NCBI GenBank assembly: GCA_040753155.1 | Contig: JBFMEU010000001.1 | Span: 13,273-77,272 of the forward strand | From: Bacillota bacterium | GTDB lineage: Bacteria; Bacillota; Desulfotomaculia; Desulfotomaculales; JBFMEU01 | Direction of reading: 5' to 3' | DNA: 64,000 bases | Part shown: positions 1,124 through 62,960 of the stretch, in pieces | Layout: every line of letters begins with the position of its first letter | Numbering within the stretch: the first letter of the stretch is position 1 | Notes under the pieces: generated by a model | What the model saw: the letters and a program-made list of their open reading frames with translations, nothing else | Told to the model about the DNA's origin: nothing | Database searches by the model: none | Position numbers and translations under genes: made by a program

Positions 1124-1205
1124 TTATCTTCGCACAGCCTGTAAGACCCCGCCCTCTCAGGTCGGGGTCTTACAGGCTGTAAACTCGAAATAAGCGCGAC
1201 TAAGG
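1124..1205 (+). repeat. repeat family TTATCTTCGCACAGCCTGTAA..., full copy with a perfect 17-bp-stem hairpin (1135-1151 / 1163-1179)
   Basis: Shares TTATCTTC(G/A)CACAGCCTGTAA and ACTCGAAATAAG(C/T)GCGACTAAGG with 5031-5074, and its 5' part with 36611-36640. Confidence 0.8.
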
Positions 1206-3607: not shown

Positions 3608-3696
3608 TAGCCGTCACTCCTGTCTCCTTTGGCTGCTGTCTTAAAAATCTGAAAATTAGTATTTTTACCCCTCTGCTGACGCCCGCTTCGGCGGCT

Positions 3697-3753
3697 TGAA
3701 CAAGACTTCATTCAGAGGGGGATTCAACCCCCTCTGAATGTTAGCCGAGTCCA
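3697..3753 (+). repeat. partial copy (first hairpin only) of the 134-nt structured repeat
   Basis: TGAACAAGACTTCATTCAGAGGGGGATTCAACCCCCTCTGAATGTTAGCCGAGTCCA is identical to the 5' part of 58161-58294. Confidence 0.85.
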
Positions 3754-3950
3754 GTGTTGAATGCTATCTGGTTAATTAACAGATAATACTGTGATTTTTG
3801 TCTTATTAACTTCTCTGGCCTAACTTCTCCGGCCCGCCGTTCTTTTCCTGCTTGAATCAGTTTCTGGCAGGATTTACAAACCCGGGACACCATGACCGCC
3901 TTCGCCGGCAGGCCGGCAACCCTCCCGGGGATCCCGGCGCCATCAAGGGA

Positions 3951-4886: not shown

Positions 4887-5030
4887 CGACGGTCACCCGC
4901 TTTCCACACAAATATTATACCACAACAAATGCAATAAACCCAGGAAGAACCTGGGTTATGTCGCCCGGGGGAAACTTAAGTTAAAATTCTGCGCTGACCG
5001 GGCCCAAATTATGACTGGCCGGCCCGGGTT

Positions 5031-5074
5031 TTATCTTCGCACAGCCTGTAAACTCGAAATAAGTGCGACTAAGG
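5031..5074 (+). repeat. short copy of the TTATCTTCGCACAGCCTGTAA family (internal hairpin deleted)
   Basis: Matches 1124-1143 and 1180-1205 joined at the CAG(C/G)CTGTAA direct repeat. Confidence 0.8.
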
Positions 5075-5085
5075 TTTAGCGGTCA

Positions 5086-5116
5086 GGGAACACACCTCCT
5101 TCGGAGGAATGTCTCC
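5086..5116 (-). repeat. 31-nt hairpin element GGGAACACACCTCCTTCGGAGGAATGTCTCC
   Basis: Reverse complement of 61644-61674 with about 3 mismatches. Confidence 0.7.
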
Positions 5117-5126
5117 AACGTATGGG

Positions 5127-6449
5127 TTAAAACCCCTCCTGAACCAAGTCTTCTTTATCCTGGCGGTGCTTCTGACCGTTTTCCGCCGCCTGCATAATCT
5201 GATACATCAGCAGGCGGGCCAGGCGCCGGGGATGGTGCCGCACCACGTTGCCGTCCTGCACCAGGCGGCCGGCCAGGAGCTTAACCCCCATGGCCTTGAG
5301 CTCATCTTCATCCACCGCAACTAAAGCGGCGCCCTCCCTGCGGTAGCGGGCCGAGACCCAGAAGGGAATTTCCTCCCTGTTCACCACCATATAATCGGGC
5401 AGCGGCCCGCCGTGGTCCAAAATAGCCTTCAGGTGGTCTGATGCGGTATAGCCGTCGGTTTCCCCCGGCTGGGTCATGATATTGCAAATATAGATTTTCA
5501 AAGCCGGTGTATCGTTAATGGCACCGGCTAGGCCCTGCACCAAAAGGTTGGGCAGAATGCTGGTGTACAGGCTGCCGGGGCCCAGAATCACAGCGTCGGC
5601 TTCACGAATGGCCAGCAGGGCCTCCTCGGGGGGAAAGCACCGGGCCGGCTCAAGGAAAACCCGCTTGATGGGCCTTTTACTGGCGGGTATACTGGACTCC
5701 CCCTTCACCACCGAGCCGTCGGCCAGCTCGGCGCAAAGCTGCACATGGGCCAGGGTGGCCGGCAGTACCTGACCCCGGATAGCCAGCACCTTGCTCAGAC
5801 TGCGCACGGCCCGGTCAAACCCGCCGGCGGTTTCGTTAAGGGCGGCCAGCAGCAGGTTGCCCATATTGTGGCCGGCCAACTCCCCCTTGCGAAACCGGTA
5901 TTGCAGCAACTCCTCCATCAAAGGCTCGGTGTCAGCCAGGGCCACCAGGCAATTCCTGATGTCACCCGGGGGCAGCATGCCCAGGTCCCCCCGCAGGCGC
6001 CCGGAGCTGCCCCCGTCATCGGCGACAGTTACTACGGCGGTAAGGTTGCTGGTATACTCCTTAAGGCCTCTGAGCAGCACCGGCAGGCCGGTTCCCCCGC
6101 CCACAACAACCACCTTCGGCCCCCGCTGCAGGTAACGGCGGAAATACACCATATCCACCACCCGGTGTTCGTCCTCGGGCAGCAGGGCATTAACCAGGGA
6201 GCCGAACCCCCGGCGCAGCCCCCAGACCATCAGCACCAGTCCCGCCAGAAATAAACCGGCGCCTGCCAGCCAGGCCAAATCAGCCCCCGGCAGGGTTTCA
6301 CTCCAGGCATCCGCTGCTTGCCGCAGACCGGGCGCGGCAGCCCCGGCCCAAAGAACGGCACCGGCCAGGGAAATCACAAAACCTGTCACGGACAGACTTA
6401 GCCAGCGTTTGATACCCATACCCGGTAACAGCCACTTAAAAGAATTCAT
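5127..6449 (-). CDS. yvcK: YvcK-type gluconeogenesis factor (CofD-like, UPF0052) with N-terminal membrane extension
   Basis: Motifs VVVVGGGTGLPVLLRGLK and VTVADDGGSSGRLRGDLGMLPPGDIRN. About 100 hydrophobic N-terminal residues. Confidence 0.88.
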   Translation of the reverse strand: MNSFKWLLPGMGIKRWLSLSVTGFVISLAGAVLWAGAAAPGLRQAADAWSETLPGADLAWLAGAGLFLAGLVLMVWGLRRGFGSLVNALLPEDEHRVVDMVYFRRYLQRGPKVVVVGGGTGLPVLLRGLKEYTSNLTAVVTVADDGGSSGRLRGDLGMLPPGDIRNCLVALADTEPLMEELLQYRFRKGELAGHNMGNLLLAALNETAGGFDRAVRSLSKVLAIRGQVLPATLAHVQLCAELADGSVVKGESSIPASKRPIKRVFLEPARCFPPEEALLAIREADAVILGPGSLYTSILPNLLVQGLAGAINDTPALKIYICNIMTQPGETDGYTASDHLKAILDHGGPLPDYMVVNREEIPFWVSARYRREGAALVAVDEDELKAMGVKLLAGRLVQDGNVVRHHPRRLARLLMYQIMQAAENGQKHRQDKEDLVQEGF

Positions 6450-13999: not shown

Positions 14000-14176
14000 C
14001 ATATTTGGTTGCCCATGCCGCCCGACGGTTGCCCGGCACCCTTTGTCCTGCCGGTTGCCCGGCAGTTTTGTAGTACCTTTGACGGTGGCAACCACACCGG
14101 AGAGCATCCGCCGAAAAAATCGATGACTCCCCCCTCGTCAACCGGGAGCAGCTGCTGCCCGGTTCCGGCGCTTTAG
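14000..14176 (-). ncRNA. glmS ribozyme: glmS ribozyme (GlcN6P-dependent) in the glmS 5' leader
   Basis: The - strand reads AAAGCGCCGGAACCGGGCAGCAGCUGCUCCCGGUUGACGAGGGGGGAGUCAUCGAUUUUUUCGGCGGAUGCUCUCCGG. This matches the B. subtilis core (AGCGCCAGAACU...GACGAGG...AUCGAAUUUUCGGCGGAUGCC). The 3' boundary is approximate. Confidence 0.85.
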
Positions 14177-14251
14177 TTAGTTGTCAGGTTACCTCGCCCC
14201 GCCTGGCCGCGCCGGGGCTGCCCATCACCTCCCGTAACAGGGTTCCCGGGG

Positions 14252-34851: not shown

Positions 34852-36228
34852 TCAGGCCTTGAGCCGGTCCCAGGCCCGGGCAAGGGCCCCGGCAACCGCC
34901 TCCGGGGCCGGCCCGCCCCGCAGTTTCCTGGCTGCGACGCACCGCTCGACACTGATGTATTCGTACACATCTTCCCCCACCAGGGGCGAGAGGGCCCGGA
35001 ACTCGTCCAAGGTCAGCTGGTCCAGGGCGATGTCCCGCTGCACACAGTTTAGCACGGCCCGCCCCACTATTTCGTGGGCCTCCCGGAAGGGCACGCCCCG
35101 GCCCACCAGGTAGTCGGCCAGGTCGGTGGCGTTGGTGAAGCCACCCCGGGCGGCCAGGCTCATTCTGTCGGCCCGCACCCGCATGGTCTCAACCATGGGC
35201 CGGAAGGTGAGCAGGCATTTCTTGACCGTGTCCACCACATCAAAAAGGGCCTCCTTATCCTCCTGCATGTCTTTGTTATAGGCCAGGGGCAGCCCTTTGA
35301 GCATTACCAGCAAAGCCTGCAGGCCACCGAATACCCGGCCGCTCTTACCCCGGATGAGCTCGGCCACGTCCGGATTCTTTTTCTGGGGCATCATACTGCT
35401 GCCGGTGCTGAAGGAGTCATCCAGCTCAATAAAGCCAAACTCGGCGCTGGACCAGAGGATTATTTCCTCGCAGAAGCGGCTCAGGTGCACCATCACCAAG
35501 GAGGCCGCGGCGGCGAATTCCACGGCAAAGTCCCGGTCGCTTACGCCGTCCAGGCTGTTCTCGGTCACCGCGGTAAAGCCCAGAGCGCCGGCCACCAGTT
35601 CCCGGTCCAGGGGGAAGGTGGTGCCGGCCAGGGCACCGGAGCCCAGGGGCATCACATCGGTGCGCCTGCGGCAGTCCTGCATCCGCTCCTGGTCCCGGCT
35701 GAACATCTGCACGTAGGCCAGCAGGTGGTGGGCCAGAGTGATGGGCTGGGCCCGCTGCAGGTGAGTGTAGCCGGGCATTACCGTGCCGGTGTGGACCCCG
35801 GCCAAATCCAGCAGGGTAACCTGAAGATCAACCAGCAGGCGGGTGATTTCATCTATTTCATCCTTTAAATACATGCGCACGTCCAGGGCCACCTGGTCGT
35901 TGCGGCTCCGGGCGGTGTGCAGCTTTTTGCCCACCTCCCCAACCTTGGCGGTGAGCAACTGCTCCACATTCATGTGAATGTCCTCGGCCTCCACGGCAAA
36001 CTCGACCCGGCCGGCCTCAATGTCGGCCAGAACTTCCTCCAGTCCCCGCACTATCTCCCGGGCCTCGGCGCCGGTGATAAGGCCTACTTTGGCCAGCATC
36101 CGGGCATGGGCCATACTTCCTTTAATATCATAGCGGTAAAGCCTCTGGTCAAAGGAAATGGAGGAGTGGAAATCTTCCACCAGCCGGTCAGTTTCCCGGG
36201 TAAACCTGCCGCTCCACAGCTTGGACAT
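34852..36228 (-). CDS. argH: argininosuccinate lyase
   Basis: 458-aa ORF starting MSKLWSGRFT. Fumarate-lyase signature GSSMMPQKKNPD. Confidence 0.96.
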   Translation of the reverse strand: MSKLWSGRFTRETDRLVEDFHSSISFDQRLYRYDIKGSMAHARMLAKVGLITGAEAREIVRGLEEVLADIEAGRVEFAVEAEDIHMNVEQLLTAKVGEVGKKLHTARSRNDQVALDVRMYLKDEIDEITRLLVDLQVTLLDLAGVHTGTVMPGYTHLQRAQPITLAHHLLAYVQMFSRDQERMQDCRRRTDVMPLGSGALAGTTFPLDRELVAGALGFTAVTENSLDGVSDRDFAVEFAAAASLVMVHLSRFCEEIILWSSAEFGFIELDDSFSTGSSMMPQKKNPDVAELIRGKSGRVFGGLQALLVMLKGLPLAYNKDMQEDKEALFDVVDTVKKCLLTFRPMVETMRVRADRMSLAARGGFTNATDLADYLVGRGVPFREAHEIVGRAVLNCVQRDIALDQLTLDEFRALSPLVGEDVYEYISVERCVAARKLRGGPAPEAVAGALARAWDRLKA

Positions 36229-36304
36229 CTATAATCCCTCCCGTCAGGCCATACGAAACCTGGCTCTTCTAAATATACAAAATCTAACACATTATAACAC
36301 ATAT

Positions 36305-36438
36305 TGAACGAGACTTCATTCAGAGGGGGATTCAACCCCCTCTGAATGTTAGCCGAGTCCATACTGGACTTAACCGCCCTTTGAAACCCGCCGCCTACAG
36401 AGGCGGGGGTCTTAGGGCGGATTAGTTCAGTGATAAAT
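36305..36438 (+). repeat. 134-nt three-hairpin repeat element (full copy)
   Basis: Near-identical to 58161-58294 and 62751-62884. Hairpins are CATTCAGAGGGGG/CCCCCTCTGAATG, GAGTCCA/TGGACTT and nested CCGCCC..CCCGCC/GGCGGG..GGGCGG. Confidence 0.9.
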
Positions 36439-58054: not shown

Positions 58055-58160
58055 AATTCAGCCTCCTAATAATTTTCTGTAAATACGCACAATTTTTTAT
58101 CCGGGTTGCCCTAACCATATGTAAGCCGGGGCCGGCACACCCCCTTCCACTTTACGAATT

Positions 58161-58294
58161 TGAACAAGACTTCATTCAGAGGGGGATTCAACCCCCTCTG
58201 AATGTTAGCCGAGTCCATACTGGACTTAACCGCCCTTTGAAACCCGCCGCCTACAGAGGCGGGGGTCTTAGGGCGGATTAGTTCAGTGATAAAT
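58161..58294 (+). repeat. 134-nt three-hairpin repeat element (full copy)
   Basis: See 36305-36438. Confidence 0.9.

Positions 58295-61206: not shown

Positions 61207-61498
<292 letters not shown>

Positions 61499-62697: not shown

Positions 62698-62960
<263 letters not shown>

Follow-up and report, generated by a model that had tools for sequence, protein, structure and literature searches.

Within the IS200/IS605 group of single-strand transposons, a close described counterpart of the repeat considered here is the insertion sequence (IS) IS608 of Helicobacter pylori, the mechanistic model of the group, in which the guide tetranucleotide AAAG lies directly 5' of the foot of the left hairpin and the left cleavage site, TTAC, is located 19 nt from that foot; target position -4 pairs with guide base 2 and position -3 with guide base 1, while the A at -2 stays unpaired (PMC3201880, PMC5934647). 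IS608, ISDra2, and further members of the group have been reported to be oriented toward the lagging-strand template (PMC5027513). Gene-less elements termed "palindrome-associated transposable elements" (PATEs) occur in Haloquadratum walsbyi and Geobacillus stearothermophilus, and the PATE-like elements of the latter share their ends with ISGst1-5 (Meers et al., 2023, PMC10055086). A further group of hairpin repeats, the repetitive extragenic palindromes (REPs) of E. coli and Pseudomonas with their composite forms (bacterial interspersed mosaic elements, BIMEs; REP doublets forming hairpins, REPINs), goes with REP-associated tyrosine transposases (RAYTs; PMC3333891, PMC6006769). Here we describe a 129-nt repeat from the draft genome of a Bacillota bacterium (Desulfotomaculales; GCA_040753155.1; 2.75 Mb in 121 contigs, 91.6% complete), three near-identical copies and one short copy of which lie in a stretch of 64,000 nt (the window; contig JBFMEU010000001.1, or C1:13273-77272; other contigs are named likewise). 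An earlier note on the window had reported it as a highly structured 134-nt repeat. Rather than a new RNA, the repeat represents a new family within a known kind of element; it is probably a non-autonomous IS200/IS605-type single-strand transposon, that is, a PATE made of a left-end and a right-end module without any gene.

The likeness to IS608 concerns both ends. On the proposed active strand (the top strand), which is the complement of the one read in the earlier note, the element would be arranged as 5'-[TTNAT] / CACTGAACTAATCCGCCCT-AAGA-(inner hairpin)...(13-bp hairpin)-AAGTCTCGT-TCAA / -3', the slashes marking the cleavage sites. As in IS608, the guide stands directly 5' of the left foot (TTAT with AAGA here, TTAC with AAAG there), target position -2 is an A, and insertion appears biased to the lagging-strand template in the studied family. 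The left cleavage site is 23 nt from the foot instead of 19, and the right site, the identical TCAA, starts 9 nt past the hairpin foot instead of 10. Unlike IS608, the 129-nt element carries neither tnpA nor tnpB, its guide is found in the internal loop of a nested hairpin, and a fifth target base (T at -5) contributes; moreover, the canonical place of the right guide is taken by CTAA, whereas a fitting GAAT occurs in the loop.

With the PATEs of H. walsbyi and G. stearothermophilus the element shares an ends-only, hairpin-bearing, gene-less organization with presumed mobilization in trans, as well as insertion 3' of a motif of 4-5 nt without inverted terminal repeats or target duplication; ISGst2 uses TTTAT and ISGst5 TTCAT, the same motifs as among the targets described below (PMC10055086). 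It differs from those PATEs in that neither the five carrier genomes nor the metagenome loci compared yielded an autonomous element with such ends, in its length of only 129 nt, which leaves no room for an omega-RNA scaffold, in its very high copy number, and in the dissimilarity of its left and right hairpins. The REP/RAYT systems resemble it in being abundant, mostly intergenic, orientation-biased hairpin repeats with arms that appear to correct each other, in a genome with a single-copy RAYT-like Y1 gene. Unlike REPs, the element has no GTAG-type head, has a defined target and defined ends, forms no REPtron, and coexists with RAYT-like genes that are equally present in relatives without the repeat.

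Limits, Insertion Mode, and Target

The ends of the repeat unit, TTGAAC...TTCAGTG on the + strand, were set by a sequence logo of the flanks of 98 copies together with a comparison of empty sites. The flank beside TTGAAC is random and carries no information. The five bases that follow ...CAGTG read A-T-N-A-A (1.7, 1.9, 0.75, 1.75, and 1.3 bits), and the sequence beyond them is random. On the top strand, TTNAT therefore abuts the left end only (TTNAT / CACTGAAC...CGTTCAA / ), and the same is seen in four other genomes. TTTAT is the target in 62% of the copies; TTGAT, TTAAT, TTCAT, and ATTAT are also used. Target specificity is thus read directly from the flanks.

Mobility is likewise documented directly, by insertions into a second repeat, Rep-B. 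About 50 empty Rep-B sites read ...GCCATGG ATAAAC GATAAAC CGCAAG..., while several independently filled ones read ...GCCATGG [TTGAAC...CAGTG] ATAAAC GATAAAC CGCAAG..., and in one filled case the element is placed before the second ATAAAC. The comparison shows that the element is 129 nt long, that it inserts without target duplication, and that the terminal "ATAAAT" included in the originally proposed limits (36305-36438) is host target DNA; the element at this place is real, but its span is 36304-36432. The true ends, TTGAAC... and ...TTCAGTG, are not terminal inverted repeats. The TGAAC/GTTCA complementarity taken for short inverted ends exists, but it is internal and offset from the termini. 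Of the suggestion that the repeat might be a miniature inverted-repeat transposable element (MITE), the mobile, non-autonomous part holds and the classical MITE does not, since both terminal inverted repeats and target duplication are missing.

Rep-B itself (...CTTCGGAAACGCCATGG ATAAAC GATAAAC CGCAAG..., with arrays of the heptamer CTGACTC) occurs in dozens of copies in the genome. It offers two ATAAAC targets, both used by the element; in the window, one Rep-B site is empty (about 61268-61300) and one is filled (62733-62749). Five further Rep-B copies read GCCATGG TTGAAC GATAAAC and look as if a deletion between two AACGA repeats had removed an inserted element except for the six bases at its start.

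Anatomy and Conservation of the Hairpins

On the top strand, 19 nt separate the target from AAGA, which is followed by the inner left hairpin, CCCCCGCC-TCTGTA-GGCGGCGGG, nested in an outer stem CCGCCC/GGGCGG. A conserved linker leads to the perfect 13-bp right hairpin, CATTCAGAGGGGG-TTGAAT-CCCCCTCTGAATG, and nine bases and the terminal TCAA end the element. The strong folding noticed at first is borne out for both strands, with folding energies of -72.5 and -74.1 kcal/mol and z-scores of -8.8 and -9.7 relative to shuffled sequences. Among the stems originally drawn, hairpin 2 (GAGTCCA/TGGACTT) has to compete with a longer pairing, ACTGGAC/GTTCAGT, which closes the whole second module.

Across five genomes, 45 distinct copies served to assess how well the structure is conserved. 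Of the proposed pairs, 92.6% are standard, and changes on both sides were found in 14 pairs (7 of the 13 in the right hairpin, 6 of the 16 in the nested left hairpin), so that compensation within the hairpins is directly observed. All five measures of pair conservation lie above 500 of 500 shuffles and above all slid controls. Half of these copies leave position 8 of the right hairpin unpaired, which makes the palindrome imperfect. The best-conserved parts are the unpaired termini and the linkers, not the loops.

In several variant copies, three concerted substitutions have turned one hairpin arm into the exact complement of its partner, in either direction; other variants have a right hairpin lengthened to a perfect palindrome of 27 bp. 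These variants suggest that the hairpins form in vivo and that their arms template each other's repair. Such arm-to-arm correction may contribute to the apparent compensation.

Covariation of Guide and Target

Sixty copies from the four other carrier genomes were compared together with their flanks, and many of them are inserted at TTNAA and not at TTNAT. Mutual information with the element-adjacent target base peaks at guide base 4 (0.66 bit, versus 0.44 bit for the next column). Read on the + (reader's) strand, this base is the variable one in GGCGGGGG[T/A]CTTAGGGC and corresponds to base 36410 in the window; other high-scoring columns merely follow the genome of origin. Over all sequence compared, TCTT goes with a target A in 145 of 160 cases and ACTT with a target T in all 19 (Fisher p = 2.5e-19; 2.9e-12 without the own genome). 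The Watson-Crick relation also holds within genomes, namely in 9 of 9 copies of a Lutispora metagenome-assembled genome (MAG) and in 18 of 20 copies of L. saccharofermentans, and both guide types are present within Lutispora genomes. Because the flank is chosen anew at each insertion and is host DNA, as the empty sites demonstrate, inherited linkage is ruled out as the cause. We regard this covariation as the strongest evidence for IS608-type, DNA-guided target choice. TTAT and AAGA meet all three canonical IS608 pairs, with an almost invariant A at -2. For IS608, the pairing of target position -1 with guide base 4 was reportedly described by Barabas and colleagues in 2008.

By analogy, transposition of the 129-nt element could proceed as follows. 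A Y1 HUH tyrosine transposase, supplied in trans, would bind the subterminal hairpins of the top strand and make two cuts, one 3' of the flanking TTNAT and one 3' of the terminal TCAA, which would yield a single-strand circle. The circle would re-insert into single-stranded DNA, 3' of a further TTNAT and with no duplication of the target. Pairing with AAGA would read the target, guide base 2 facing position -4, guide base 1 position -3, and guide base 4 position -1. Two subfamilies that are one guide base apart and insert at TTNAT and TTNAA, respectively, represent a natural counterpart of the engineered guide swaps of IS608. This suggests that, once the enzyme is found, a compact retargetable single-strand insertion element could be obtained from anaerobic Bacillota.

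Copy Number, Distribution, and Recent Activity

In place of the three full copies and one partial copy originally counted, a BLAST census over the contigs of the genome, in which the number of full copies is a lower bound, returned at least 114 full-length copies; 47 further copies are cut by contig ends, and another 45 partial copies are internal. The copies cut in this way show that the repeat breaks the assembly. A uniform orientation, stated earlier for all copies, holds inside the window, but genome-wide 62 full copies lie on the + and 52 on the - strand; occurrence in both orientations genome-wide is one of the outcomes that the earlier note had named as refuting. Sixty full copies are identical to the query and almost all others are at least 94% identical to it; the mean pairwise identity is 97.4%, and 28% of the pairs are identical (n = 114). 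With about one copy per 18-24 kb, the element makes up about 0.6-0.7% of the genome. It is a recently active, very abundant, gene-less element.

The element was not found in 40 relatives of the same order. Four genomes of other, unrelated Bacillota lineages carry the family as well, each in dozens of copies that are 78-96% identical to the element of the own genome: Paradesulfitobacterium ferrireducens PLL0, Lutispora sp. MAG STD2_109, Lutispora saccharofermentans m25, and a Thermoanaerobacterales MAG. It is also present in metagenomes from anaerobic digesters and fermentations, while plasmid, phage, and viral collections gave no match. The patchy distribution is indicative of horizontal transfer, and copies that are 85-96% identical across different orders document the recent transfer of a gene-less element. 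As it interrupts the assembly at up to 47 contig ends and sits in operons for arginine biosynthesis and other housekeeping functions, and in frame in several enzyme genes, it affects how well genomes of this lineage assemble as well as how their genes are built.

Orientation and Replication

In 84 of 114 copies (74%, p = 4e-7), the top strand coincides with the locally G-rich strand, and genes called from open reading frames (ORFs) lie on that strand equally often (74%). The bias persists among intergenic copies (67 of 92, p = 1.4e-5) and among copies between genes of differing direction (21 of 27, p = 0.006), and short forms of 61 nt follow it as well (13 of 16). TTNAT is equally frequent on both strands. 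Since the G-rich strand carries leading-strand sequence, the preferred orientation would correspond to insertions that enter the lagging-strand template, and a link to the replication fork is plausible. This argument is supportive for the studied family, not decisive. Most copies lie between co-directional genes, where the top strand is sense in 48 cases versus 15; they are probably co-transcribed, and a secondary effect on the mRNA could result.

Sister Families

Two sister families, F2 (18 copies in the own genome) and F3 (seen in metagenome contigs), have a right-end module in common with the studied family (...GACTT-13-bp hairpin-TTAG...). Both combine a guide with a C-rich inner hairpin, AAGA-CCCCG in F2 and AATA-CTCCCG in F3, and both target TTTAT. 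The F2 copies in the window have their top strand on the + strand, opposite to the studied family.

Candidate Enzymes

Three matches to Y1_Tnp were found in the genome. Two of them are the 5' parts of a classical tnpA gene, the reading frame of which is cut short where contigs C22 and C118 end, and the position of tnpA at two contig ends implies that this classical IS200/IS605 element is multi-copy. Its left end, TTAC / ...AAAG-CCCACCAC, has the same target and guide as IS608, with AAAG directly before the hairpin CCCACCACT-TAT-AGTGGTGGG; the remainder of this element is missing from the assembly. The third match is a single-copy gene for a RAYT-like Y1 protein. The enzyme that acts on the 129-nt element could be the classical TnpA of the IS608-like element, to which we give somewhat less than an even chance; the RAYT-like protein is a rather unlikely candidate, and the remaining probability goes to an enzyme that has been lost or left unassembled.

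A parent element was found neither among 89 external loci (tblastn) nor at the RAYT-like and TnpA loci of the four other carriers. One external locus, L195, contains a RAYT-like gene of the type flanked by terminal inverted repeats, which is not bounded by the element. In the two carriers without classical TnpA, the copies are older and have diverged further (92% and 78% pairwise identity); classical TnpA genes do occur in the two genomes with recent bursts (97% and 96%), but they belong to unrelated lineages.

Two other leads were discarded. Two TnpB matches near variant copies, a C-terminal fragment and a doubtful match of 18 residues, were put down to coincidence, as these loci have nothing further in common. 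In the Thermoanaerobacterales MAG, a pair of inverted copies spaced by 1 kb encloses a lipoprotein-like gene and no transposase. As a separate observation, a 192-aa C-terminal TnpB-like fragment at C85:8300-8880 precedes a structured tail that contains a hairpin CTCCCGCCT...AGGCGGGAG; this locus probably represents the decayed right end of an IS605-type element, including its guide-RNA region.

Weighing the Assignment to the IS200/IS605 Type

Several observations count against the assignment of the element to the IS200/IS605 type. No transposase-bearing element with matching ends was found in the own genome, the four other carriers, or 80 metagenome loci; the left end of the resident classical TnpA element is, target and guide apart, unrelated to the 129-nt element; and two carrier genomes are without any classical TnpA, the RAYT-like genes being the sole Y1 genes found there. 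The orientation bias of F2 is the opposite one, with 5 of 18 copies on the G-rich strand (2 of 14 without the copies borne by Rep-B), so that the replication argument holds for the studied family only. The bias may in any case be confounded by selection relative to transcription; for F2, the T-rich tail after the right hairpin might make sense copies terminator-like and have them selected against inside operons. Mismatches of the G-T kind outnumber A-C mismatches by 48 to 24, with one mismatch-tolerant position dominant, which gives no pointer to the top strand. Finally, there is no right-end guide 5' of the foot of the right hairpin, the canonical place being occupied by an invariant CTAA that does not fit, and the only fitting tetranucleotide lies in the hairpin loop, a part that differs among old copies in the Thermoanaerobacterales MAG.

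A right-end guide at the canonical place (CTAA or GACT) was rejected, as these bases are invariant while the cleavage site differs between families. The loop of the right hairpin ends in GAAT and the terminus reads TTCAA in the studied family, and the corresponding sequences in F2 and F3 are AAAA and TTTAT. Both combinations are those predicted by the IS608 rule, and GAAT with TCAA is literally the IS608 pair. A right-end guide within the loop might account for this, although the pattern comprises two independent states only and was noticed post hoc. An extended proposal, to which we give a low probability, is that the studied family, F2, and F3 depart from the IS200/IS605 design in two ways, in that such a guide (GAAT for TCAA, AAAA for TTAT) operates in them and that they are driven by the widespread long RAYT-like Y1 proteins with a C-terminal helix-turn-helix (HTH), subclass 2.1 of Quentin et al. 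(2018), which have no known DNA partner. If so, the orphan proteins of subclass 2.1 would gain a substrate, and it would be explained why no classical transposase travels with the element.

Alternative Explanations

Foremost among the alternatives is a system of the REP/BIME/REPIN type, in which upkeep of the element would depend on the domesticated RAYT-like Y1 protein, encoded by a single-copy gene, instead of an IS transposase. The protein matches the NCBIfam model NF047646 ("REP-associated tyrosine transposase") at the exact cut-off (80 bits) as well as Pfam Y1_Tnp; two copies of the element lie 1.6 kb and 0.7 kb from its gene (chance about 0.009); and the two carriers with RAYT-like genes alone, mentioned above, fit the same idea. 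However, other genes intervene between the RAYT-like gene and the two copies, which are direct and not inverted and hence form no REPtron, and in the other carriers no element occurs within about 1.5 kb of any RAYT-like gene. Homologues of the RAYT-like protein (35-49% identity) are encoded by 28 of the 40 same-order relatives without the element, at similar or higher identity, the closest (45%) being among them, so that the gene looks vertically inherited whereas the element is patchy. The protein resembles subclass 2.1 (long, HTH-bearing), for which no REP-like partners were found (Quentin et al., 2018, PMC6006769). Moreover, a composite of two different hairpin modules over 129 nt, lacking a GTAG-type head, is unlike a REP palindrome of about 20-40 nt, and REPs are without a defined insertion target. 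A REP-type system thus appears improbable, and the IS200/IS605-type reading is preferred.

Much less probable still is a structured small RNA or cis-regulatory RNA, with its own promoter or borne by operons, the hairpins of which would act, for example, as stabilizers or attenuators; an antisense or structured RNA had been among the first suggestions, beside a MITE and a protein-binding module. The very stable folding, the compensatory changes, the probable co-transcription of most copies with co-directional genes, and the about twofold higher frequency of G-T pairs on the + (reader's) strand would suit such an RNA. Against it, no Rfam family matched at gathering thresholds, in agreement with the initial failure to recognize one: hits with E-values up to 10 were noise only, and the best weak Rfam 15 match reached 19.8 bits against a threshold of 80. 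A scan of the element for promoters and terminators found no such site, copies occur in both orientations relative to neighboring genes and also inside ORFs, and conservation is highest in the unpaired termini and linkers instead of the loops. That the repeat spreads as DNA is shown by its insertion polymorphism and its target specificity, and a secondary effect on mRNA would not account for the repeat itself.

A miniature element of another class, either a MITE of a DDE transposase or one of the IS110/IS1111 or IS91 rolling-circle kind, would explain the high copy number and uniform length, the TGAAC/GTTCA motifs near the ends do resemble weak inverted repeats, and IS110 and IS91 elements likewise insert at specific sequences without classical duplications; yet the DDE MITE is excluded by the structure of the true ends and the missing target duplication, and the one-sided 5-nt target, the guide base by the hairpin foot, and the IS608-like spacings fit Y1 elements, so that this class of explanation is very unlikely.

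Copies in the Window and in Genes

The coordinates of the element, its parts, and related features are collected in Table 1. The three long copies and the short one are mutually 98-100% identical, and all were found at the places given for them in the earlier note. Copy 1 is located 76 nt upstream of an argH-like gene (34852-36228, - strand).

Table 1. Positions of the element and related features; numbers refer to the window unless a contig is named.
Feature	Position	Strand	Remarks
Full 129-nt element, copy 1	36304-36432	-	Limits from flank logo; top strand 5'-CACTGAAC...CGTTCAA-3'
Target pentanucleotide (host DNA)	36433-36437	-	Abuts left end; ATAAA on +, TTTAT on -; from empty versus filled sites and logo
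Proposed left-end guide tetranucleotide	36410-36413	-	TCTT on +, AAGA on -; directly 5' of inner hairpin foot on top strand
Left-end nested hairpin	36374-36420	-	Outer stem CCGCCC/GGGCGG; inner stem CCCGCCGCC/GGCGGGGG, loop TACAGA; from fold and compensatory changes
Right-end hairpin	36317-36348	-	13-bp perfect stem, 6-nt loop; on top strand followed by 9 nt and terminal TCAA
Full element, copy 2	58160-58288	-	Between MarR-family gene and Fe-S protein gene; target ATAAA 58289-58293
Full element, copy 3	62750-62878	-	Inside Rep-B copy (...CTTCGGAAACGCCATGG / ), between argD-like and argF-like genes; target ATAAA 62879-62883
61-nt short form	3696-3756	-	Right-end module (positions 1-58) plus terminal GTG; left-end hairpin module wholly deleted
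F2 copy, truncated	1128-1205	+	Without right end; target TTTAT 1123-1127
F2 copy, short	5035-5158	+	Target TTTAT 5030-5034; left hairpin lost, small insert within right hairpin
Classical IS200/IS605 element	C22:37600-37900, C118:2400-2710		tnpA cut by contig ends
RAYT-like Y1 protein, 264 aa	C6:27902-28696		HTH-like tail
Hairpin variants (arm rewritten or palindrome extended)	C2:8352, C2:80334, C19:40194, C31:15342, C78:3967; C9:40253; C38:19485; C61:2960, C54:16887, C79:10985		
In-frame 43-residue inserts	C51:2247-4583, C32:9807-12041, C2:24317-26662, C87:3625-4992, C65:5240-6562		Top strand always coding

The short copy had been placed at 3697-3753 and described as keeping only hairpin 1. 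The hairpin 1 module is indeed kept, but the copy is slightly longer (Table 1) and retains both termini. This 61-nt form is recurrent, with 16 copies genome-wide that share an identical junction and both termini. The bases that follow the short copy in the window (3757-3762) read TTGAAT, not ATNAA, and are similar to the element's own start, TTGAAC; they may be the remnant of a neighboring copy or reflect an insertion beside a right end. Elsewhere in the window, a glmS ribozyme riboswitch (14025-14183, - strand, 97.7 bits) is the sole Rfam match.

The view that all copies are intergenic did not hold genome-wide. The top strand has one fully open frame, its 129 nt corresponding to 3 x 43, and about six copies lie in frame within long ORFs, to which they add ITELIRPKTPASVGGGFQRAVKSSMDSANIQRGLNPPLNEVSFN. 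We take the host ORFs, from reading their sequences, to be Tex-like, ADP-forming acetyl-CoA-synthetase-like, peptidase-U32-like, and glycosyltransferase-9-like.

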